Source: a virus. Taken from it: DNA of 64,000 nt. This document shows positions 28,190 through 38,870 of the stretch, in pieces. The position numbers and the translations under genes were made by a program. How positions within the stretch are numbered: position 1 is the first letter of the stretch; each line of letters starts with the position of its first letter. The notes beneath the pieces are model-generated. The model searched no databases, was not told the DNA's origin, and saw only the letters and a list, made by a program, of their open reading frames with translations. The DNA is taken from positions 64,001 to 128,000 of the IMG/VR virus record IMGVR_UViG_3300046559_000446, one strand, 5' to 3'.

Positions 28190-28495
28190 ATGCTGCAAGT
28201 TCAAGGCCTTCCCTTCCACAAAGGATCCGACGCCTGGCGCGTCATACACGAGGGGCGCATCCTGCCCAAGTATGTGCGCGACGAGATCGCCCGCCTGCGC
28301 CGCGAGCGGAACGAATACAGCGAGATCCGGGTGCTGATGACGGGCGAGCCTGGCTGGATCAGCCGGGCAGAGCAGGCGGCGCGCAGCGCCCGCACCTACG
28401 CCGAGCACGAGGCGCGCGCCCTGGGCTGGACCGAGCCAAGCGTCGCCGCCGAGGGCGCCGCCGCCTACGCCGAGGCGCTGGCGCGCCAGGCCTAG
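28190..28495 (+). CDS. Hypothetical protein
   Basis: AAGG RBS after the promoter; 101 aa. Confidence 0.6.
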   Translation: MLQVQGLPFHKGSDAWRVIHEGRILPKYVRDEIARLRRERNEYSEIRVLMTGEPGWISRAEQAARSARTYAEHEARALGWTEPSVAAEGAAAYAEALARQA

Positions 28496-30216: not shown

Positions 30217-30398
30217 AGAACACTTTTGAGATCAAGCTGGGCCTCCATGTTCACGGCTCCGACGACTGGGAGCCGATGAATTACTCCAACTATTCCTCCT
30301 GCGTTCACGCCTGGCGCGCCGTCGATCCCGACTGGGATCCCCATTTTGCCGAGTTTTCATTCGAGATCGCGGAGTTTAACGGGGTGCTGTTCGGATGA
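30213..30398 (+). CDS. Hypothetical protein
   Basis: ATGA coupling on both sides; GGAG RBS. Confidence 0.5.
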   Translation: MKNTFEIKLGLHVHGSDDWEPMNYSNYSSCVHAWRAVDPDWDPHFAEFSFEIAEFNGVLFG

Positions 30399-32029
30399 CG
30401 TCCATCAATCTTCAAAAGGTCAATCCGCAGGATGTCCTCGACCGCATGGACAAGGAGATGTGCGAGCGGTCCCTGCACGAGTTCGTCAAGCGGGCCTGGA
30501 AAGAGGTCGAGCCGGGCCAGCCCATGCTCGACAACTGGCACCTGCCGTTCATCTGTGAACATTTGGAGGCGATCACCGACGGCGCCCAGGTCGATGGCAA
30601 GCCCTACAACCGTCTCCTGATCAACATTCCTCCCGGCGGCATGAAATCCCTGCTGCTCAATGTGTTTTGGCCGGCCTGGGAATGGGGGCCTGCCGCCATG
30701 CCCCACATGCGCTATCTCTGCGCGTCCCATAACATCGACCTGGTCGAGCGCGACAGCATTCGCATGCGCCGGCTGGTCACCACCGCCTGGTATCAGAAGC
30801 ACTGGGGCGACCTGGTCGAACTGACCGGCGACCAGAACTCCAAGACGGTGTTCGAAAACACCCGCTCCGGATGGCGCAGGGCGGTCGCGGCGGGAGCGGA
30901 TACCGGTCACCGGGCCGACCGCGTCCTGATCGACGACGCTCTGAGCGTCAAGAACGCCAACAGCGACAGCACCCGCGAGAGCGTCAACCTGTGGTTCAGG
31001 GAATCGGTGCCGACCCGCCTCAATTCGCCGCGCAAGAGCGCCATCGTGGTGATCATGCAGCGGCTGCACGAGGCCGATCTGTCCGGAATGATCCTCGACA
31101 AGAAGCTCGGCTACGATCACATCATGATCCCGATGCGCTACGATCCGGACCGCGCCCACCCCACCATGCTCGGCTACAAAGACCCCCGCACCATCCCCGG
31201 CGAGCTTTATTTCCCGACCCGTTTTCCCCTCGACGTGGTCGAACGCGAAGAGCGGATCATGGGGCCGTTCGCCACCGCCGGCCAAATGCAGCAGGCCCCA
31301 GTCCCGCGAGGAGGCGGCGTCATCAAGGACGCCGACTGGATCCTGTGGGACAGGCCGGAATTTCCGGCGCTCGACTTTATTATCGCCTCCATCGACACCG
31401 CCTACGGTCTGAAGCAGGAGAACGACCCCAGCGCCATGACGGTGTGGGGGGTGTTTTCAGGCGACACCCGCAACCAGGCCACCAGGCTGGTGGATCGCTA
31501 CGGTCACCCGAAGGAAATGCCTGAAGGCGGCGCCTCCACTCACCTCGACGCCGCGCCGCGCGTCATTTTGATGTACGCCTGGACCGAGCGCCTCAGTCTT
31601 TCCGACCTGGTCGCCAAGGTGGCCCTCCATTGCAAGAAGTTGAAGGTTGACCGCCTGCTGGTCGAGGCCAAGGCGAGCGGCATATCGGTCGCGCAGGAGA
31701 TGCGCCGTCTTTACGGACATGAGCCATGGGCGGTTCACCTGATCAATCCAGGCAACCAGGATAAACTTGCTCGGCTGTACAGTGTTCAGCCGCTGTTTGC
31801 GGAAGGCATGGTCTACGCTCCAGACAAGGAATGGGCGGAAATGGTGATCAGGCAAGTGGCTTCCTTCCCCAAGGCGCTGCATGACGATCTTACCGACACC
31901 ACATCACAGGCGATTCGCCACCTGCGCGACTGCGGATTGCTGACCCGGTCCGACGAAAGGTTGGCGGAAATGAACGAGGAAGTCCAGTATGGCCGCACCA
32001 GGCCGCTGGAGCCGCTCTATCCAGGCTGA
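30395..32029 (+). CDS. terL: Terminase large subunit
   Basis: LINIPPGGMKS Walker A, IDD Walker B, VIMQRLHEADL, nuclease motifs IDTAY, VEAKASG, HDDLTD. Confidence 0.92.
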   Translation: MTSINLQKVNPQDVLDRMDKEMCERSLHEFVKRAWKEVEPGQPMLDNWHLPFICEHLEAITDGAQVDGKPYNRLLINIPPGGMKSLLLNVFWPAWEWGPAAMPHMRYLCASHNIDLVERDSIRMRRLVTTAWYQKHWGDLVELTGDQNSKTVFENTRSGWRRAVAAGADTGHRADRVLIDDALSVKNANSDSTRESVNLWFRESVPTRLNSPRKSAIVVIMQRLHEADLSGMILDKKLGYDHIMIPMRYDPDRAHPTMLGYKDPRTIPGELYFPTRFPLDVVEREERIMGPFATAGQMQQAPVPRGGGVIKDADWILWDRPEFPALDFIIASIDTAYGLKQENDPSAMTVWGVFSGDTRNQATRLVDRYGHPKEMPEGGASTHLDAAPRVILMYAWTERLSLSDLVAKVALHCKKLKVDRLLVEAKASGISVAQEMRRLYGHEPWAVHLINPGNQDKLARLYSVQPLFAEGMVYAPDKEWAEMVIRQVASFPKALHDDLTDTTSQAIRHLRDCGLLTRSDERLAEMNEEVQYGRTRPLEPLYPG

Positions 32030-32045: not shown

Positions 32046-32192
32046 ATGTTTTTTCGCAATAACCCCACGTCCGTGACGGAGAAGGCTCCGGAAAAGCCGA
32101 TTCCAGCCCCAAAAACCCCTGAAAAACACGAAAAACACGATGAAAAGACCGAAAAACACCCCCACCGCGACATGCACGAGAGCAAAAAATGA
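32046..32192 (+). CDS. Small charged protein
   Basis: GGAG RBS; K/E/H-rich 48 aa; ATGA overlap with the next gene. Confidence 0.45.
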   Translation: MFFRNNPTSVTEKAPEKPIPAPKTPEKHEKHDEKTEKHPHRDMHESKK

Positions 32193-32776
32193 CTAAAAAG
32201 ACCGAACATGAGCACCAGGTCCATAAGTCGAGCCGCATCAAACCCTCGATTCAGGCTGCTTTGGACGAAACGCACCCCACCGGGGGCGCTGAAGTGCTCC
32301 ACCATCACCCTTCCGTGGCCGGATCGCACCGCCGGCCCGGCGATTTCGACGTATTCGACCCCCAAGACCCCGGCATGCAGGGCATTCCGCTGGCCGGGCC
32401 TCCTTCTTACCTGTCGCCATCGACCGGCGACCTCCAAAGGAAGCTGGCGGAAGCTCCTCCTCTCTTAATGCCCGATCTTGAGCACGTCGCCGCCTTTGGC
32501 GAGGGCTTCACTCACATCGCCAGCGGCAATGAGGGCGTCACCGCGACCAATATTCATCCCAACCAGGTCCGCTTCATGGATTTCGGCGCCGCGCTTCTCC
32601 AATTGGAGCAGGGCCACCGCATTCAGCGCAAGGCGTGGAGCGGCAGATGGGTCGAGGCCCGCTTTCCCGACGGCGCGCCGGCGTGTCTTTACATGACGCT
32701 GGCCAACGGCGAAATGACCATCTGGACTATCTCCCAAGCTGACGTATTGGCCAGAGACTGGAGCATTGCGCCATGA
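32189..32776 (+). CDS. Protein with C-terminal DUF2829 (Tad2-like) domain
   Basis: MDFGAALLQLEQGHRIQRKAW...WTISQADVLARDW. Confidence 0.75.
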   Translation: MTKKTEHEHQVHKSSRIKPSIQAALDETHPTGGAEVLHHHPSVAGSHRRPGDFDVFDPQDPGMQGIPLAGPPSYLSPSTGDLQRKLAEAPPLLMPDLEHVAAFGEGFTHIASGNEGVTATNIHPNQVRFMDFGAALLQLEQGHRIQRKAWSGRWVEARFPDGAPACLYMTLANGEMTIWTISQADVLARDWSIAP

Positions 32777-33111
32777 CCGTAGTTGAGAACGACCGTATGA
32801 CGTCCATCAATCCCTACAGCATGGATTTTGGCACGGCCATCCTGCAAATGCGGGCCGGCTGCAAAGTCCAGCGCGAGGGCTGGAACGGCAAGGATATGTG
32901 GATCGCCCTGTCGGGCGTGGAGGGACCGCGCGTAGTCTACCACGAGCAGCTTTGGTCGAAGGTCGCCCGCGATTACGCCAAAACCCAGCCCGATGGGAGA
33001 GTTACCGTCCTGCCCTGCTTCATCATGAAGACGGCGACCGGCGAAATCCTGATGGGTTGGCTGGCGAGCCAATCCGACATGCTGGCCCAGGATTGGAGAG
33101 TTGTGCCGTGA
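32773..33111 (+). CDS. tad2: DUF2829 / Tad2-like anti-defence sponge protein
   Basis: MDFGTAILQMRAGCKVQREGWNGKDMWI...PCFIMKTATG...GWLASQSDMLAQDW. Confidence 0.85.
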   Translation: MTVVENDRMTSINPYSMDFGTAILQMRAGCKVQREGWNGKDMWIALSGVEGPRVVYHEQLWSKVARDYAKTQPDGRVTVLPCFIMKTATGEILMGWLASQSDMLAQDWRVVP

Positions 33112-33299
33112 CCCCGTTCAGGCCCGAACCCATCAAGACGACCAAGCTATGGACCGGCGTCTGCCGCGACGGCCCGTGGAAAGGCCTGCCATTGACGGCG
33201 GGATCGCGCTTCGTCTGCGCCCCCGACGGCAATGAATACTGCAATGACGGGACCGGACACTGGAACTGGGTCGAGCTACACCACGAGGGCAAGAAATGA
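33108..33299 (+). CDS. Small protein (GxCxxGP...W-x-W mini-domain)
   Basis: GTGA overlap; TGVCRDGPWKG...EY...HWNW. Confidence 0.55.
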   Translation: MTPFRPEPIKTTKLWTGVCRDGPWKGLPLTAGSRFVCAPDGNEYCNDGTGHWNWVELHHEGKK

Positions 33300-33754
33300 G
33301 CAAAATCCTCAATGGCGTTTGCGTCGGCGGTCCCCTGAATGACCGGGGCCTGACCTGGGACAAGGACGTGAAAGTGCTGCTGGCGTCGAACAACGACGGC
33401 CACGCCGGCGAATACCACTATGACCACGCAGCCACCAACAAGTGGATCTGGCTTGACGAAGGCAAGGAACAAACCATGAGCAGAGCAGCCGAAGAGCAGA
33501 CCATACCCCGAATTACGCCCGAAATCATCGATAAGCGCATCGTGCGGGTGAAATACTATCAATTTCCCGACTCCACCGTCATGATCTGCGCCATCGAACT
33601 GACCAATGGCTACCATGTCATTGGCGAGGCCGGCTGCTCTTCTCCGCTCACTTTTGACGAAACCATCGCCAGGCGGATCTCCTTCGACGACGCCCGCCGC
33701 AAGATCTGGCCGCTGGAGGGCTACGTCCTCCGCAACGAACTGAAGGGGCTATGA
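33296..33754 (+). CDS. acb2: Acb2/Gp49-like anti-CBASS sponge with N-terminal extra mini-domain (internal start 33476)
   Basis: PRITPEIID...CAIELTNGYHVIGEAGC.SP..FD...IARRI...A..KIWPLEGY. Confidence 0.8.
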   Translation: MSKILNGVCVGGPLNDRGLTWDKDVKVLLASNNDGHAGEYHYDHAATNKWIWLDEGKEQTMSRAAEEQTIPRITPEIIDKRIVRVKYYQFPDSTVMICAIELTNGYHVIGEAGCSSPLTFDETIARRISFDDARRKIWPLEGYVLRNELKGL

Positions 33755-33894
33755 CGCCGCTCGATATCGCCATTTCGGTTTTCATCCTGCTGCTTGTCAG
33801 CCGCCTCTCCTACAACAAGGGGCGGCGCGACGAGCGCGCCGCTCATTTCGAGGATTACGAAAATGAGTTTCATGATGAAGGCCACTGTCGATAA
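33751..33894 (+). CDS. 47-aa membrane micro-protein
   Basis: ATGA overlap; MTPLDIAISVFILLLVSRLSYNKGRR... Confidence 0.45.
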   Translation: MTPLDIAISVFILLLVSRLSYNKGRRDERAAHFEDYENEFHDEGHCR

Positions 33895-34078
33895 TCACCC
33901 GCTGCCTGGCGGGCGACCCTCACACCTGTTTGACGTCCATGTCGAGGGCGGCGATCCGCCGGCCAAGGCCGAATACACCATCATCGCCAACGATGAGGAT
34001 GAAGCGGCCCGCGAGGGCATGAAACGGTTCCAAAAGGCCCATGACAAGACGCCGATGCCCGACATTGGCGATATTTGA
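33863..34078 (+). CDS. Hypothetical protein
   Basis: GAGG RBS; just before the portal. Confidence 0.6.
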   Translation: MSFMMKATVDNHPLPGGRPSHLFDVHVEGGDPPAKAEYTIIANDEDEAAREGMKRFQKAHDKTPMPDIGDI

Positions 34079-34122: not shown

Positions 34123-36657
34123 ATGCCATTGGTGCCGGGCTTGCCCCTGAACATCCGCCAGACCAATGGCGGCGCCCCGCCGGCCATTTCTCCGGGCGTC
34201 TCCATCCAGCATGACGTTCACGAGCCTCCCGGCGTCCCCGAAATGGACGACGCCGGCGCTGTCATCAAGATCGAGCATGCCGACGGCAGCGTCACTGTCT
34301 CGCTTGATGGCAAATCGCTGGTCGATAAGCCAGAGCAGAACACAGGCTGGTTCGCCAACCTGGCCGAAAAGCTTCCGGAAGACGATCTGAGCGGCATTGC
34401 CGACGATTTGCTGCGCGGGATCGACGAGGATCTGACCAGCCGCAACGACTGGATCGAAGAGCGCGCCCAGGGCATCAAGCTGCTCGGCCTCAAGATCGAG
34501 ATCCCCAATTTGCAGTCGGCGGCGGACGGCGCCCCGGTGGACGGCATGTCAAAAGTGCGGCATCCGCTGCTGCAGGAGGCGGTGCTCCGCTTTCAAGCCA
34601 ACTGCCGCTCCGAAATGCTGCCCACCGACGGGCCGATCAAGATCCGCGATGACGGCAGCAACTCCAATCTCCCTCGTGACGCACTGGCGACCGCCCTTGA
34701 AAAAGACCTCAATCATTATCTCACTGTCACTGCGACCGAATACTATCCCGACACCGACAAGATGTTCCTTCTGCTGGGCTTTGGCGGCACGGCATTCAAG
34801 AAAGTGTACAACTGCCCGCTGCGTAATCGGCCAGTTTCTGAATCGGTTGACGCCAACGACCTCATCGTCAACGACGCCGCCACCGACCTCGCCAACGCCA
34901 AGCGTGTTACCCATCGATCTATGATGCGGCCCTCGACGGTCAGGCGCATGCAGATAATCGGCGCCTATCGCGACATCGACCTCGATACGCCCAAGCCGCA
35001 GACGCTCGACGCTGCGCAGGAGGCGGCTAAAAACCAGCAAGGGATCCAGACCAACACCACGAGGCCCGACGACCGTGACCGCGAGATCTACGAGTGCTAT
35101 TGCGAACTCGATCTCAAAGGCTACGAGCACAAGTACAAAGGCAAGATTTCGGGCCTTGAGATCCCGTACCGGGTCACCATCGACCTCTCCAGCCGCAAAA
35201 TCCTCTCGGTCGTCAGAAACTACGATGAGGACACGAAGGAGCTTCCTGAAGCTAGAGAGACATTCGTCAAATATACCTACGTACCGGGCCTCGGCTTCTA
35301 CGATATCGGACTCCTTCATATATTGGGCAATACCACCAACGCTGTTACTGCTGCTTGGCGCGAGTTGCTGGACGCTGGAATGTTTAACAACTTTCCCGGC
35401 TTTCTCATGGCTGATACGGGAGCCAGACAGAACACGAATATCTTCCGCGTACCGCCGGGCGGCGGCGTCCTCGTCAAGACGGGCGGTCTTCCCATCAATC
35501 AGGCGATTATGCCACTTCCTTACCAGCCGCCGTCTCAAGCTCTGATGGCCCTGGTCGATAACATGGTGCAGACCGGCCAGCGCAGCGGCGGCACCGCCGA
35601 ACTGCCGGCCAACGAAGGCAAGGCCGAAATCCCCGTCGGCACCATCCTGGCGATGATCGAGCAGGCCCAGAAGGTGCTGAACAACGTCCACAAGCGCATG
35701 CACTCGGCGCAATCGCAGGAATTTCGCCTGCTGATACGCTGCTTCAAGGAGAACCCCAAGGCGTTCTGGCAGCGCAACAAGAAGCCGTCCGCGCCGTGGG
35801 ACGAGCAGAACTTCCGCGCCGCGCTCGATCAGGCCGACCTGACCCCGCAGGCCGATCCGAATACGTCGAGCCATGGCCAGCGCGTGATGAAGATCATGGC
35901 GCTCAAGCAGTTGCAGCAGCAAAACCCCAGTCTCTACGACCCCATCGCCATCGATACGGCGGCGCTGCAGGCGCTGGGCTGGAACAATCCGCAGCAATTC
36001 ATGGCGCCGCCGAGCGCCCAGGCCGCGCCTCCCCCGCAACTCATCCAGCAGCAGGCTGAGACGGCGGCGAAGACCCTCACCTCGCAGGCGGCGATGGTCA
36101 CCGCCCAGGCGCGGGCCAAGGAGGCCGGCGCCCGCGCCATGAACCTGATGGCGGAAGCCCAGACCATGGGCATGGACGAAACCGGCCAGATCCAGCAGGA
36201 CACGCCGGTCGATCAGCACCGCGCCGAATCGGAGCGCATCAAGGCCAACGCGCATGCGCAGCAGGCCGACACTCACCAATCCGTCATGCAGGCCAAGTCC
36301 CAGGCCGACCTGCTGAACGCCCAGACGCGGGCCAAGGAAATCCAATTGAAGCTGGGCGAACTGTCGATGAAGGATTCGCACCACGACGACGAGCAGCGCC
36401 TCAAGGCGAGGCAGAGCGCCGTCGATATGGCCAAGCAGGTCATGGACACCCGTGCCGAAGACCAGCGCACCGCCGCCGAGATCCATCACGATCACACCAT
36501 ACTGAGCCGCGAGCAGGAGCACGATCACGCGATCACCGAAAAGACCCACGCGCATGAGAAGGAATTGGAGGGCGTGAAGAAAGCGGCGGCTATCGCGGTC
36601 GCTAAAGCCAAACCGAAACCCAAGCCTGCAGCCGCCAAGCCAAAGGCCAAGAAATGA
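34123..36657 (+). CDS. Portal protein (P22-like, long helical C-terminus)
   Basis: 844 aa after TerL; HPLLQEAVLRFQA, GFGGTAFKKVY, GLGFYDIGL motifs; Q/A-rich barrel region. Confidence 0.85.
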   Translation: MPLVPGLPLNIRQTNGGAPPAISPGVSIQHDVHEPPGVPEMDDAGAVIKIEHADGSVTVSLDGKSLVDKPEQNTGWFANLAEKLPEDDLSGIADDLLRGIDEDLTSRNDWIEERAQGIKLLGLKIEIPNLQSAADGAPVDGMSKVRHPLLQEAVLRFQANCRSEMLPTDGPIKIRDDGSNSNLPRDALATALEKDLNHYLTVTATEYYPDTDKMFLLLGFGGTAFKKVYNCPLRNRPVSESVDANDLIVNDAATDLANAKRVTHRSMMRPSTVRRMQIIGAYRDIDLDTPKPQTLDAAQEAAKNQQGIQTNTTRPDDRDREIYECYCELDLKGYEHKYKGKISGLEIPYRVTIDLSSRKILSVVRNYDEDTKELPEARETFVKYTYVPGLGFYDIGLLHILGNTTNAVTAAWRELLDAGMFNNFPGFLMADTGARQNTNIFRVPPGGGVLVKTGGLPINQAIMPLPYQPPSQALMALVDNMVQTGQRSGGTAELPANEGKAEIPVGTILAMIEQAQKVLNNVHKRMHSAQSQEFRLLIRCFKENPKAFWQRNKKPSAPWDEQNFRAALDQADLTPQADPNTSSHGQRVMKIMALKQLQQQNPSLYDPIAIDTAALQALGWNNPQQFMAPPSAQAAPPPQLIQQQAETAAKTLTSQAAMVTAQARAKEAGARAMNLMAEAQTMGMDETGQIQQDTPVDQHRAESERIKANAHAQQADTHQSVMQAKSQADLLNAQTRAKEIQLKLGELSMKDSHHDDEQRLKARQSAVDMAKQVMDTRAEDQRTAAEIHHDHTILSREQEHDHAITEKTHAHEKELEGVKKAAAIAVAKAKPKPKPAAAKPKAKK

Positions 36658-38870
36658 ACGAGCGCGCGAAAGCCCTTGGCTTCGATCCGTCGCAGACGTG
36701 GTTTCACGGCTCAACTAAGGATCTGCCGGCTTTCGCCGCCAAGCGCGCTCCGCGCAGCGAGCAAATGGGCCTGGAAGGCGTTCACCTTGCGCAAAATCCG
36801 GATTTTGCCTCCCATTACGCCGAAGGGCCTGGCGGCAACGTCACGCCAGTTCATGTGCGCGGCAATATTCTCGACGCCACCCAGCTTATCCCCGAAGGCG
36901 GCGAGCATCACGCCATTCTCGATAAGCTGCTGAAGGGAACAGGCCGCAAGCCATACTGGAACTCTGATGAGCAGGGGCGTCGATTCGCCCCGCCGCTTCA
37001 GGGTCATATCGACGCCGTCAGCCCGCAAAAGGCCAAGCGCGTCATCCAGGAACACGGCTACGACGGCGTCAAATACGATGCTCGATACGGATCATTGCAG
37101 CCTGGAGGCCGCAGCGCGAGCATTTCAAACAAAAGCCCCGCAGTGGTGATGTTCGACCCATCGAATATCCGGGCCAGGACTGCACAATTCGACCCCCAGC
37201 AAGCAGGGAGCGCGGAACTAATGGCATCGAGAGGCGGTAAGGCGATCCACTCTGCGCTCCTGACGGCCAAGAGCCTTTATGACAAGCTGCCGCATGTCGT
37301 CGGCGGCGGGGCGCCGATGGCCAAGGGCGGCGCTGCGCTGGCGCCGATTCCCCAGATCATCATGCCGGGCGATCACCCGGCCCGCATCGACACCCGGCTG
37401 GCGACCGGGGCCAAGCCGCTCGATCTGGGGCCAGGGCCGCGCACCGTCAACATGGCTGCGTTGCGGGCGACGCCGGCGCTGTTCGACAAGAACGTCGATA
37501 TCCTGCGGCACTACCCGAATGTTTCGAAAAGGGCGGCGAAGCTGTCGAACCCGGATATGGCCGAGCATTTCATCAATCACGTCAAGGACAACCTGCTGTG
37601 GCTGCACGATCAGGTGCCCAACGAAACCCGGCAGCGGTCCAAATTGTGGTACGACGGCGCCAACAAGCTGGCCAAGGAGTGGGCGCAAAAATACGGCGTC
37701 TCGGAGGCGTCCGCCGCCGGCGCGCTGGCCGCGCTGTCGCCGCAGAAGGACTGGTTTCAGAACGTGTCGCTGGCCGAGCGCGTCCTGCATGCGATGAAGG
37801 GGCGCGGCAATAACGCATATCATGGTGAAACCTTTTCGCCTGAAATGGAGGGCACCTATCGCGGCCTGGACAAGCTGGCCACCGAGAAGAACGAGCCAAT
37901 CTTCCAGGCGATCAGGGGCAAGTCGCTGGGCGACATCGACGACATGAAGCACATTCCCGGCGACGAGCGCGCGGTCATGAAGGCGCTGTGGATCCGGATG
38001 CACGATCAGACCCACGGCGATCCCGGCTACAAGATCGCCACGCCGGAAGGTCATTTTGGCGAGGTCGCCCGGAACGCCGACGGATCGCCATCGAGGGCGG
38101 GCTGGGGTTCGCTGGGCGAAATCGGCAAGGCGGTGCAGGCCATCGAGAGCAATGGCGATCCGACCTTCATGAACCGCCTGATGGGCGAGCGCCACAAGGT
38201 TCGCAATTTCTACAATAACATCCTCGATCCCAACTCCCAGCACGGCGACGTCACCATCGACACCCATGCGGTCGCCGCCGGCCTGCTGCGCGCGCTGTCG
38301 GGCAATTCGCTTGAGGTGGCGCACAATTTCAGCAACTACGCCGGCAAGGGCGTTCCCGGCGCCGGCGGCTCCAACGCCACCGGCGTGAACGGAACCTATC
38401 CGCTCTACGCCGACGCCTATCGCCAAGCCGCCAAAGAGCGCGGTATACTGCCGCGCGAAATGCAATCGATTACGTGGGAGGCGATCAGAGGATTGTTCCC
38501 CGACACCTTCAAAACTGATAAAAACAACGCCCATATCGACAGCATCTGGAACGACTACAAGAACGGAAAGAAGGGAATCGACGATGTCCGCAAAGAAATC
38601 CACGACTTCGCGGGGGGCATCCGGCCACCGGAGTGGCACGACACCTCTGGAACGCCTGATGCACCGGTTCGGGGTGCCAGTGGACCGGGACTCGTACCTG
38701 GCCCTGGATCACGCGGGCCAGCCCCCCAAGGAATTATCGGCGGAACAGGAAATGGACCTCCCGGAGCACCTGCGCCGCAAGCACCCCGGCAGTCGGGGCT
38801 GATCCTGCCGCCAGGTTATGCCTGCGGCGGCATGATCGACAAAGCATTGGCCGCGACACGGCCCCGGTAA
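36654..38870 (+). CDS. Fusion: ADP-ribosyltransferase-like (ART-PolyVal type) plus HhH-GPD glycosylase-like domain
   Basis: N: WFHGS...VHLAQNP..AS.YA...PVHV...GYDGVK...VVMFDPSNI. C: LWYDGA...ALAALSPQ.DW..N...KVRNFYNNI...VTIDTHA...QSITW. Confidence 0.6.
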   Translation: MNERAKALGFDPSQTWFHGSTKDLPAFAAKRAPRSEQMGLEGVHLAQNPDFASHYAEGPGGNVTPVHVRGNILDATQLIPEGGEHHAILDKLLKGTGRKPYWNSDEQGRRFAPPLQGHIDAVSPQKAKRVIQEHGYDGVKYDARYGSLQPGGRSASISNKSPAVVMFDPSNIRARTAQFDPQQAGSAELMASRGGKAIHSALLTAKSLYDKLPHVVGGGAPMAKGGAALAPIPQIIMPGDHPARIDTRLATGAKPLDLGPGPRTVNMAALRATPALFDKNVDILRHYPNVSKRAAKLSNPDMAEHFINHVKDNLLWLHDQVPNETRQRSKLWYDGANKLAKEWAQKYGVSEASAAGALAALSPQKDWFQNVSLAERVLHAMKGRGNNAYHGETFSPEMEGTYRGLDKLATEKNEPIFQAIRGKSLGDIDDMKHIPGDERAVMKALWIRMHDQTHGDPGYKIATPEGHFGEVARNADGSPSRAGWGSLGEIGKAVQAIESNGDPTFMNRLMGERHKVRNFYNNILDPNSQHGDVTIDTHAVAAGLLRALSGNSLEVAHNFSNYAGKGVPGAGGSNATGVNGTYPLYADAYRQAAKERGILPREMQSITWEAIRGLFPDTFKTDKNNAHIDSIWNDYKNGKKGIDDVRKEIHDFAGGIRPPEWHDTSGTPDAPVRGASGPGLVPGPGSRGPAPQGIIGGTGNGPPGAPAPQAPRQSGLILPPGYACGGMIDKALAATRPR

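Follow-up and report, generated by a model that had tools for sequence, protein, structure and literature searches.

The 64,000-nt stretch of DNA analysed here (the window) comprises bases 64001–128000 of the 138,254-bp virus record IMGVR_UViG_3300046559_000446 of IMG/VR. Between the genes for the large terminase subunit and the portal protein it carries a compact island of short genes, three of which (positions 32189–33754) encode members of nucleotide-signal sponge families. We consider it probable, with good confidence, that this island is a counter-defence cargo module of two Tad2 sponges and one Acb4-family sponge, lodged in the terminase–portal slot of a ~69-kb soil/rhizosphere phage, in which a mini-domain termed GGP occurs both as a 63-residue open reading frame (ORF) and N-terminally in the Acb4-like protein. 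An earlier note, drawn from the sequence of the window, had proposed an anti-signalling island of three sponge homologues at this place; identification of the flanking genes and Pfam matches above cut-off confirmed the three genes and their location, and hidden Markov model (HMM), profile and fold evidence, combined with the published functions of both families, supports the island itself. On the same evidence, a sponge function of the three proteins is likely. The four genes that carry the argument are the following (coordinates are those of the window unless the record or another contig is named).

32189..32776, plus strand: N-terminal extension followed by a short-insert Tad2-like domain, 195 aa (PF11195)
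32773..33111, plus strand: stand-alone long-insert Tad2-like protein, 112 aa (PF11195)
33108..33299, plus strand: free GGP mini-domain protein, 63 aa, GTG start (profile search, AlphaFold2 model)
33296..33754, plus strand: fusion of a GGP mini-domain to an Acb4-family domain, 152 aa (PF13876, profile, fold)

HMM searches against PF11195 and PF13876, which the earlier note had named as a check, placed all three sponge-family proteins above the Pfam cut-offs of 25 and 27 bits, respectively. PF11195 matches the 112-aa protein at residues 17–111 (E 1.5e-22, 80.3 bits) and the 195-aa protein at residues 130–193 (window 32576–32767; E 3.4e-13, 50.4 bits), in agreement with a scan of the whole record; the PHROG families matched by the sponge genes (872/1048 and 322) also agree with Pfam. 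The two tandem DUF2829-type domains are 33% identical, and the copy in the 195-aa protein lacks ~33 residues of the insert and sits behind an extension of ~130 residues, exactly the arrangement that had been read from the sequence. Both proteins thus fall within the family of the solved Tad2 proteins, namely SptTad2 (PDB 8WJD), HgmTad2/AcrIIA7 (8KBI–8KBM), SPO1 Tad2 (8SME) and MoTad2 (9EIB/8V3E). SptTad2 8WJD (E 8.6e-14) and HgmTad2/AcrIIA7 8KBI (E 3.7e-13) align with the 112-aa protein along its full length, and this protein resembles the HgmTad2 class in its long insert and in its retained pocket motifs GWNG and ASQ(S/T)D. The nearest PDB relatives of the short Tad2 domain in the 195-aa protein are MoTad2 9EIB/8V3E (E 5e-5). 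This domain resembles the MoTad2/SPO1 class; however, its insert is even smaller than that of SPO1 Tad2, two pocket residues are changed, and the low-complexity extension is added.

The binding sites of HgmTad2 provide the reference for a comparison of pocket residues. [quoted passage not shown] The 112-aa protein keeps the equivalents of all these gcADPR-pocket residues (W37, N38, S99, S101 and D102 for W21, N22, S90, T92 and D93). In the short Tad2, three of the five positions are kept (W150, S151, S182, A184 and D185), and the 195-aa protein has almost none of the insert that forms the cyclic-dinucleotide pocket. The pocket comparison suggested by the earlier note thus shows the gcADPR site to be conserved in the 112-aa protein, gives an ambiguous picture for that of the short Tad2, and shows the cyclic-dinucleotide pocket of HgmTad2 not to be conserved in the 112-aa protein.

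The third protein, of 152 residues, matches PF13876 (Phage_gp49_66) at residues 73–148 (window 33512–33739; E 3.1e-20, 72.9 bits). PF13876 is the Acb4 family, whose founder SPO1 Acb4 (PDB 9E4W) is a tetrameric protein of 96 residues that sequesters 3'3'-cGAMP and related signals of the anti-phage system CBASS; Acb4 binds 3'3'-cGAMP and cUA, homologues from phages of Gram-negative hosts also bind 3'3'-c-di-AMP, and eight of eight diverse PF13876 homologues tested bound 3'3'-cGAMP (Chang et al., bioRxiv 10.1101/2024.12.30.630793). A PDB search with the single sequence of the 152-aa protein returned no solved relative, and a profile (A1) built from 26 of its homologues matched Acb4 9E4W (E 2.9e-5). 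[quoted passage not shown] Foldseek search of the PDB with this part of the model gave 9E4W chains at all of ranks 1–10, with a probability of 1.00 and a target template-modelling (TM) score of 0.62–0.73; against the best-fitting chains, the root-mean-square deviation is 1.5 Å over 69 columns. A family-level function of the Acb4-like domain is likely by analogy with these characterized members. The Gp49/PF13876 domain noted earlier for this gene is thus present. By contrast, the name Acb2 given to it then does not hold, and the ligand precedent drawn from Acb2 is inapplicable, the relevant one being that of Acb4. Acb2 was found neither among the PDB matches of the single sequence or the family profile nor among the fold matches, and a scan of the whole 138-kb record for the Acb2/Tad1 hairpin PF24729 gave no match at E up to 1. 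Acb2 proteins (PF24729) do the same general job as cyclic-nucleotide sponges, but the third gene of the window differs from them in fold and family.

The Acb4-like part may also be made on its own. The 152-aa gene has an in-frame start codon, M61 (window 33476), located exactly where stand-alone Acb4 proteins begin, and five of five DNAs have a start codon at this position, ATG or, in one relative, GTG, with a purine-rich tract before it. A 92-aa Acb4-only product may therefore be translated from M61 alongside the GGP–Acb4 fusion. The 152-aa protein thus resembles SPO1 Acb4 by HMM, profile and fold, in a length of ~90 residues if read from the internal start, and in having a Tad2 neighbour; it differs in a sequence identity of only ~15% and in its ligand contacts, as described below. 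Compared to the published Acb4 fusions, it carries at its N-terminus a GGP domain, which was not among the published fusion partners found (Tad2 and Sequestin).

The record from which the window is taken has a composite structure that bears on the gene counts. It is termed complete and carries a 99-bp terminal repeat, and a self-comparison showed that its halves are collinear and 67–94% identical over almost the whole length, most long blocks being 77–94% identical. Unit A covers record bases 1–69298 and unit B begins at 69299, which places the junction at window position 5298/5299; relatives are 61–69 kb long. In a contig assembled from an independent soil run, the start of unit B is preceded by the end of unit B, and the variants on the left of its junction are those of unit B, not of unit A, which argues that unit B is a genome of its own. 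The record is thus most likely two co-assembled strains of ~69 kb each, joined head to tail in one circle, and gene counts for the record as a single genome are accordingly doubled. The matches that might suggest three Tad2 genes and two Acb4 genes within a single genome were therefore rejected as additional copies; they are alleles of the sister unit A. In unit A, a single 235-aa protein has the same N-terminal extension fused directly to a long-insert Tad2, together with a near-identical 63-aa ORF, an extra 92-aa Cys-rich ORF and a 160-aa GGP–Acb4 protein. Near-identical copies of the window island are present in no fewer than 24 metagenome runs from rhizosphere and soil; no RNA run is among those listed. 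A host search by terminase among prokaryote genomes gave a single distant match, to a metagenome-assembled genome.

Metagenome contigs of the same lineage (L007, L010–L014 and L017) show how the content of the slot varies. L010/L017, with 77% identity to the window in a neighbouring gene, repeats the window arrangement: the extension bears a short Tad2, and a stand-alone long Tad2, a GGP gene and a GGP–Acb4 gene accompany it. L011 carries a short-insert Tad2 on a long extension and a GGP–Acb4 gene. L007 has one Tad2 gene, four small ORFs including a free GGP gene, and then a GGP–GGP–Acb4 protein. In L012–L014, whose portal is 75% identical to that of the window, Tad2-like genes are followed by a protein (P0039; L012:597–1160, L013:1764–2327 and L014:139–702) with two GGP domains and a PF24729 Acb2/Tad1-type domain (E 3.9e-14). 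In this protein, the sponge domain has been swapped, an Acb2/Tad1-type domain standing in place of Acb4, and the GGP front part is retained in the same slot. The slot in these relatives accordingly holds Tad2 with Acb4, or Tad2 with an Acb2-type gene. The nearest GenBank phage, MW202675 (L006), has no sponges there; its slot (5893–6836) encodes a dCTP deaminase-like protein and a dATP/dGTP diphosphohydrolase N-terminal domain. Judged from these gene contents, the terminase–portal slot is a variable cargo site, filled mostly with sponge genes in this lineage. More broadly, a Tad2-like ORF lies within 3 kb on the same strand at 14 of the 80 Acb4-family loci fetched from IMG/VR, which fits the published linkage of the two families: Tad2–Acb4 fusions are frequent, and one natural fusion inhibits Thoeris as well as CBASS (Tal et al., bioRxiv 10.1101/2025.07.12.664507). 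As to the tandem paralogues, among these 80 loci only L017 (the same contig as L010) resembles the window; the Logan contig L013 also has two Tad2-like genes.

Family membership, the kept gcADPR-pocket residues of the 112-aa Tad2, purifying selection and the return of the module in relatives are observed; by analogy with the solved members of both families, we infer the oligomeric state, the ligands and the defence inhibition of the island proteins. Each sponge would form a homotetramer whose inter-subunit pockets hold nucleotide second messengers, like the dimer of dimers of known Tad2 proteins and the tetramer of Acb4 with its four ligands. The Tad2 proteins would bind ADP-ribose isomers made by Toll/interleukin-1 receptor (TIR) enzymes and thereby keep Thoeris effectors off, and the Acb4-like protein would bind cyclic dinucleotides and keep CBASS effectors off. 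The module would be read as part of the rightward packaging and head gene row, with its genes coupled stop to start.

Several observations weigh against this proposal. The short Tad2 has serine and alanine at the positions of N22 and T92 and almost no insert, and may be inactive or bind another ligand. In the 112-aa Tad2, the cyclic-dinucleotide pocket of HgmTad2 is not kept (R31S, F70V and N85M, with a gap at L36 and K46/S47 deleted). The SPO1 Acb4 contacts K36, F48, E49, V56, Y57, F62, N63, I66, T70 and K81 correspond to T, Y, H, C, S, F, D, I, I and P in the 152-aa protein, of which only three are counted as kept (F48Y, F62 and I66); however, as all eight tested homologues bind cGAMP, these contacts are not a strict family signature. 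The 152-aa protein also lacks ten residues of the N-terminal helix region (consensus VEMQIRENGK; at aa 67–72, window 33497–33511) that are present in 11 of 11 close relatives and in unit A. Moreover, the island genes seem to belong to a late operon, and no promoter-like site was seen within the island; such timing would be late for intercepting early signals. Finally, about a quarter of the sponge homologues tested inhibited none of seven systems.

The GGP mini-domain has the motif G-x-C-x-x-G-P ... Y ... W-x-W and occurs twice in the island, as the 63-aa ORF and as residues 1–55 of the 152-aa protein, the similarity between the two being weak by BLASTP (E 0.002). The G, C, G-P, Y and W positions are invariant among both copies and their relatives. 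No other island gene is as well conserved as the 63-aa ORF, whose GTG start overlaps the stop of the 112-aa gene: between the two genome units it has 95% amino-acid identity and a ratio of nonsynonymous to synonymous substitution rates (dN/dS) of 0.11. It has no Pfam or PHROG match, and the ESM Atlas gave nothing usable. A profile search of 1.84 billion representatives returned 15 proteins at E up to 0.001, of which about a dozen are genuine and small. The genuine relatives are free, or fused to Acb4, to an Acb2/Tad1-type domain or to an uncharacterised C-terminal part (P0037), and a tandem GGP–GGP–Acb4 order is seen in P0005, P0010 and P0012. P0033, P0035 and P0041, large proteins with Kazal, DUF7507 or other repeats, were judged spurious. 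Of the 80 Acb4 loci, those with the domain are confined to the two closest relatives. The AlphaFold2 model of the free 63-aa protein has a pLDDT of 82 and contains five short strands. No convincing fold relative emerged: a wide VIA-align search found one chain (Z 2.1), and BFVD gave only weak matches (E of at least 0.03) to small uncharacterised phage proteins, although the absence of a structural relative does not show a new fold. A complex prediction of the free GGP protein with the fused GGP domain scored 0.00, which is uninformative either way.

Considering its repeated association with sponges, we propose that the GGP domain most likely works together with them, either by helping their assembly or serving as an adaptor, or as one more binder. 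In the first form, GGP would pair with a second GGP, in the same chain or in the free 63-aa protein, and would stabilise the sponge oligomer, cross-link it or anchor it to a phage or host component, with no signal binding of its own. This is quite possible, though short of probable. The copy numbers of one free plus one fused domain in the window and one free plus two fused domains in L007 are as expected of a pairing module, and such a role is compatible with both the tetrameric Acb4 and an Acb2/Tad1-type partner, which is hexameric in solved members; the relative amounts of Acb4 with and without the tag could be governed by the conserved internal start M61. However, the fused GGP is modelled poorly in the full-length 152-aa protein (pLDDT below 50 for residues 1–32). 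In the second form, GGP would itself be a new nucleotide-signal sponge, and the island would hold four or five binding modules whose fusions combine two specificities, like Sequestin–Acb4 and Tad2–Acb4. The discovery of Sequestin followed the same logic of fusion to known sponges (Tal et al.), which makes GGP a reasonable candidate for the same approach; that a single phage lineage fuses it to sponges of two unrelated families and that it also occurs free speaks for a binder, as do its conservation and its confident small β fold. Nevertheless, its ~45 ordered residues are fewer than in any known sponge protomer, VIA-align and BFVD found no ligand-bearing structural relative, its family is very small, with members in this lineage only, and a comparable add-on, the N-terminal β domain of RyR Tad, serves dimerisation rather than binding. 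We thus regard a binding role of GGP as unlikely. Sequestin itself (PF21825) has no match in the whole record at E up to 1, and no Pfam match was found on the extensions.

A bolder proposal, made tentatively and somewhat against expectation, takes GGP as a new counter-defence module in either guise: a tiny sponge for a signal beyond those of Tad2 and Acb4, or a portable pairing module for mixed sponge complexes, in which the M61 start sets the proportion of tagged to untagged Acb4. If this is true, GGP would be a new functional module of phage counter-defence.

The two Tad2 paralogues plausibly bind different messengers. This idea is reasonable, as the long paralogue is nearest to SptTad2/HgmTad2 and the short one to MoTad2, and their pocket residues differ. 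It touches on a wider alternative, in which the main target of at least one Tad2-like protein lies outside Thoeris: the protein would be an AcrIIA7-like anti-CRISPR or a sponge for the Pycsar signals cUMP/cCMP, or would act on another signal. HgmTad2 was first isolated as AcrIIA7, and the PDB names it as a type II CRISPR-Cas inhibitor; the short paralogue has as its closest solved relative MoTad2, a protein that binds His-ADPR and cUMP and inhibits neither type I Thoeris nor CBASS; and the short paralogue is altered at two of the five gcADPR-pocket positions. Given that the gcADPR site is so highly conserved in the family, with ~1% of members predicted to be non-functional for it (Li et al.), and that the long paralogue keeps the site, such a target is improbable. 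Still less credible is a decaying, non-functional short-insert Tad2, left as a duplicate by recombination of two alleles (the extension with a short and the extension with a long Tad2): relatives do carry the same extension on a short or a long Tad2, unit A has only the long form fused to it, and the pocket of the short Tad2 is partly changed, but the two-gene arrangement is retained in the diverged relative L010/L017, the short-insert form is the sole Tad2 in L011 and in P0045/P0046, and the frame is open, coupled to its neighbours and present in the near-identical copies from soil and rhizosphere.

The N-terminal extension of the 195-aa protein (residues 1–129) is His/Pro-rich, of low complexity and of variable length, with two conserved short motifs near its start. 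It has no match to a Pfam or PHROG family and is restricted to a few close relatives, where it is attached to either a short- or a long-insert Tad2. It is probably a disordered, lineage-specific appendage.

The two sponge families and the GGP genes of the proposed counter-defence module are embedded in a row of genes whose remaining members are listed below.

30395..32029, plus strand: large terminase subunit, 544 aa; left border of the cargo slot
32046..32192, plus strand: small ORF, 48 aa, Lys/Glu/Pro/His-rich (longest frame from 31989)
33751..33894, plus strand: ORF, 47 aa, hydrophobic N-terminal helix and charged tail; conserved in relatives
33863..34078, plus strand: ORF, 71 aa, directly 5' of the portal gene; start fixed by the unit A homologue
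34123..36657, plus strand: SU10-type portal protein (PF23899 SU10_portal, E 2.5e-17); right border of the cargo slot

The terminase gene has 70% nucleotide identity to the annotated large terminase subunit of MW202675, with a weak PF17289 match and a dN/dS of 0.08 between the genome units, and the portal is 75% identical to the portal fragment 3' of the GGP–Acb2-type gene in L012. Seven short genes lie in a row between them. Stop-start overlaps of the ATGA/GTGA type couple every pair from the 48-aa ORF through the 47-aa ORF, and the start of the 71-aa ORF precedes the end of the 47-aa ORF by 32 nt. A scan for promoter and terminator consensus sequences within the row found no convincing site, the counts being near the shuffled expectation. 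With its overlapping genes and no convincing internal promoter or terminator, the row is probably co-transcribed with the packaging and head genes. Between the two units, dN/dS is 0.11–0.33 for the island genes compared, including the ORFs at 32046, 33108 and 33863; the ORF at 33751 was compared by eye only. With the terminase at 0.08, these values indicate real genes under purifying selection. A PADLOC search matched none of the island proteins.

The earlier note had pointed to four small ORFs (32046, 33108, 33751 and 33863) as candidate anti-defence genes. All four exist and recur in relatives; the candidacy gained support for 33108 only, the GGP gene, since relatives fuse its domain to Acb4 and Acb2-type sponges, and the other three remain candidates. 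The unit A homologue of the 48-aa ORF (32046) begins with the same MFFRNNPTSVTEK start, and its dN/dS is 0.33; it has no Pfam, PHROG or PADLOC match. The 47-aa ORF (33751) is conserved in unit A, L010 and L011, with no Pfam or PADLOC match and only weak PHROG matches (E 0.04–0.07). The 71-aa ORF (33863) has a dN/dS of 0.18, lies beside the portal gene in all relatives, and in the ESM Atlas matched nothing but viral clusters without a name.

Further small genes were observed at the slot in relatives. A Cys-rich ORF of 92–97 residues with CWCPF ... THGTCRL motifs (record 28205–28483 in unit A, L010:1055–1348 and L007:3717–4004) lies between the free GGP gene and the GGP–Acb4 gene; it is absent from unit B of the window and matches no family. 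The sponge gene of L012 is followed by an ORF of 111 aa that is TSCPD-like. Beyond the slot, directly after the portal gene and with an overlapping stop and start, a 738-aa protein (window 36654–38870) matches DUF7178 (E 1.3e-28), with an ART-PolyVal ADP-ribosyltransferase domain below cut-off (27.7 versus 31.2 bits).

The island resembles a published anti-signalling island of Ab09/N4-like phages, which stacks Acb4–Sequestin, Bes1 and Bes2 (bioRxiv 10.64898/2026.06.04.730250). Both are compact, variable loci that gather several inhibitors of nucleotide signalling, with sponges that carry extra small domains. They differ in location, the window island lying between terminase and portal rather than in the primase–virion RNA polymerase slot, as well as in lineage, in the tandem Tad2 genes and in the GGP add-on. 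Both sponge families, the linkage of Tad2 with Acb4 and stacked anti-signalling hot spots are already published; what goes beyond current descriptions is the tandem pair of a short and a long Tad2, and the previously undescribed GGP domain, which accompanies sponges of two unrelated families.

Sponges are a main route by which phages disarm Thoeris, CBASS and Pycsar, and they are used as tools for finding immune messengers. To the sponge principle itself this locus adds little. It does, however, offer a natural experiment, in which close strains differ in the number of Tad2 genes (one or two), in the insert of the Tad2 carried on the same extension (short or long), and in the sponge behind the GGP domain (Acb4 or Acb2-type). 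These strain differences make testable both a split of ligands between the Tad2 paralogues and the contribution of the GGP domain.

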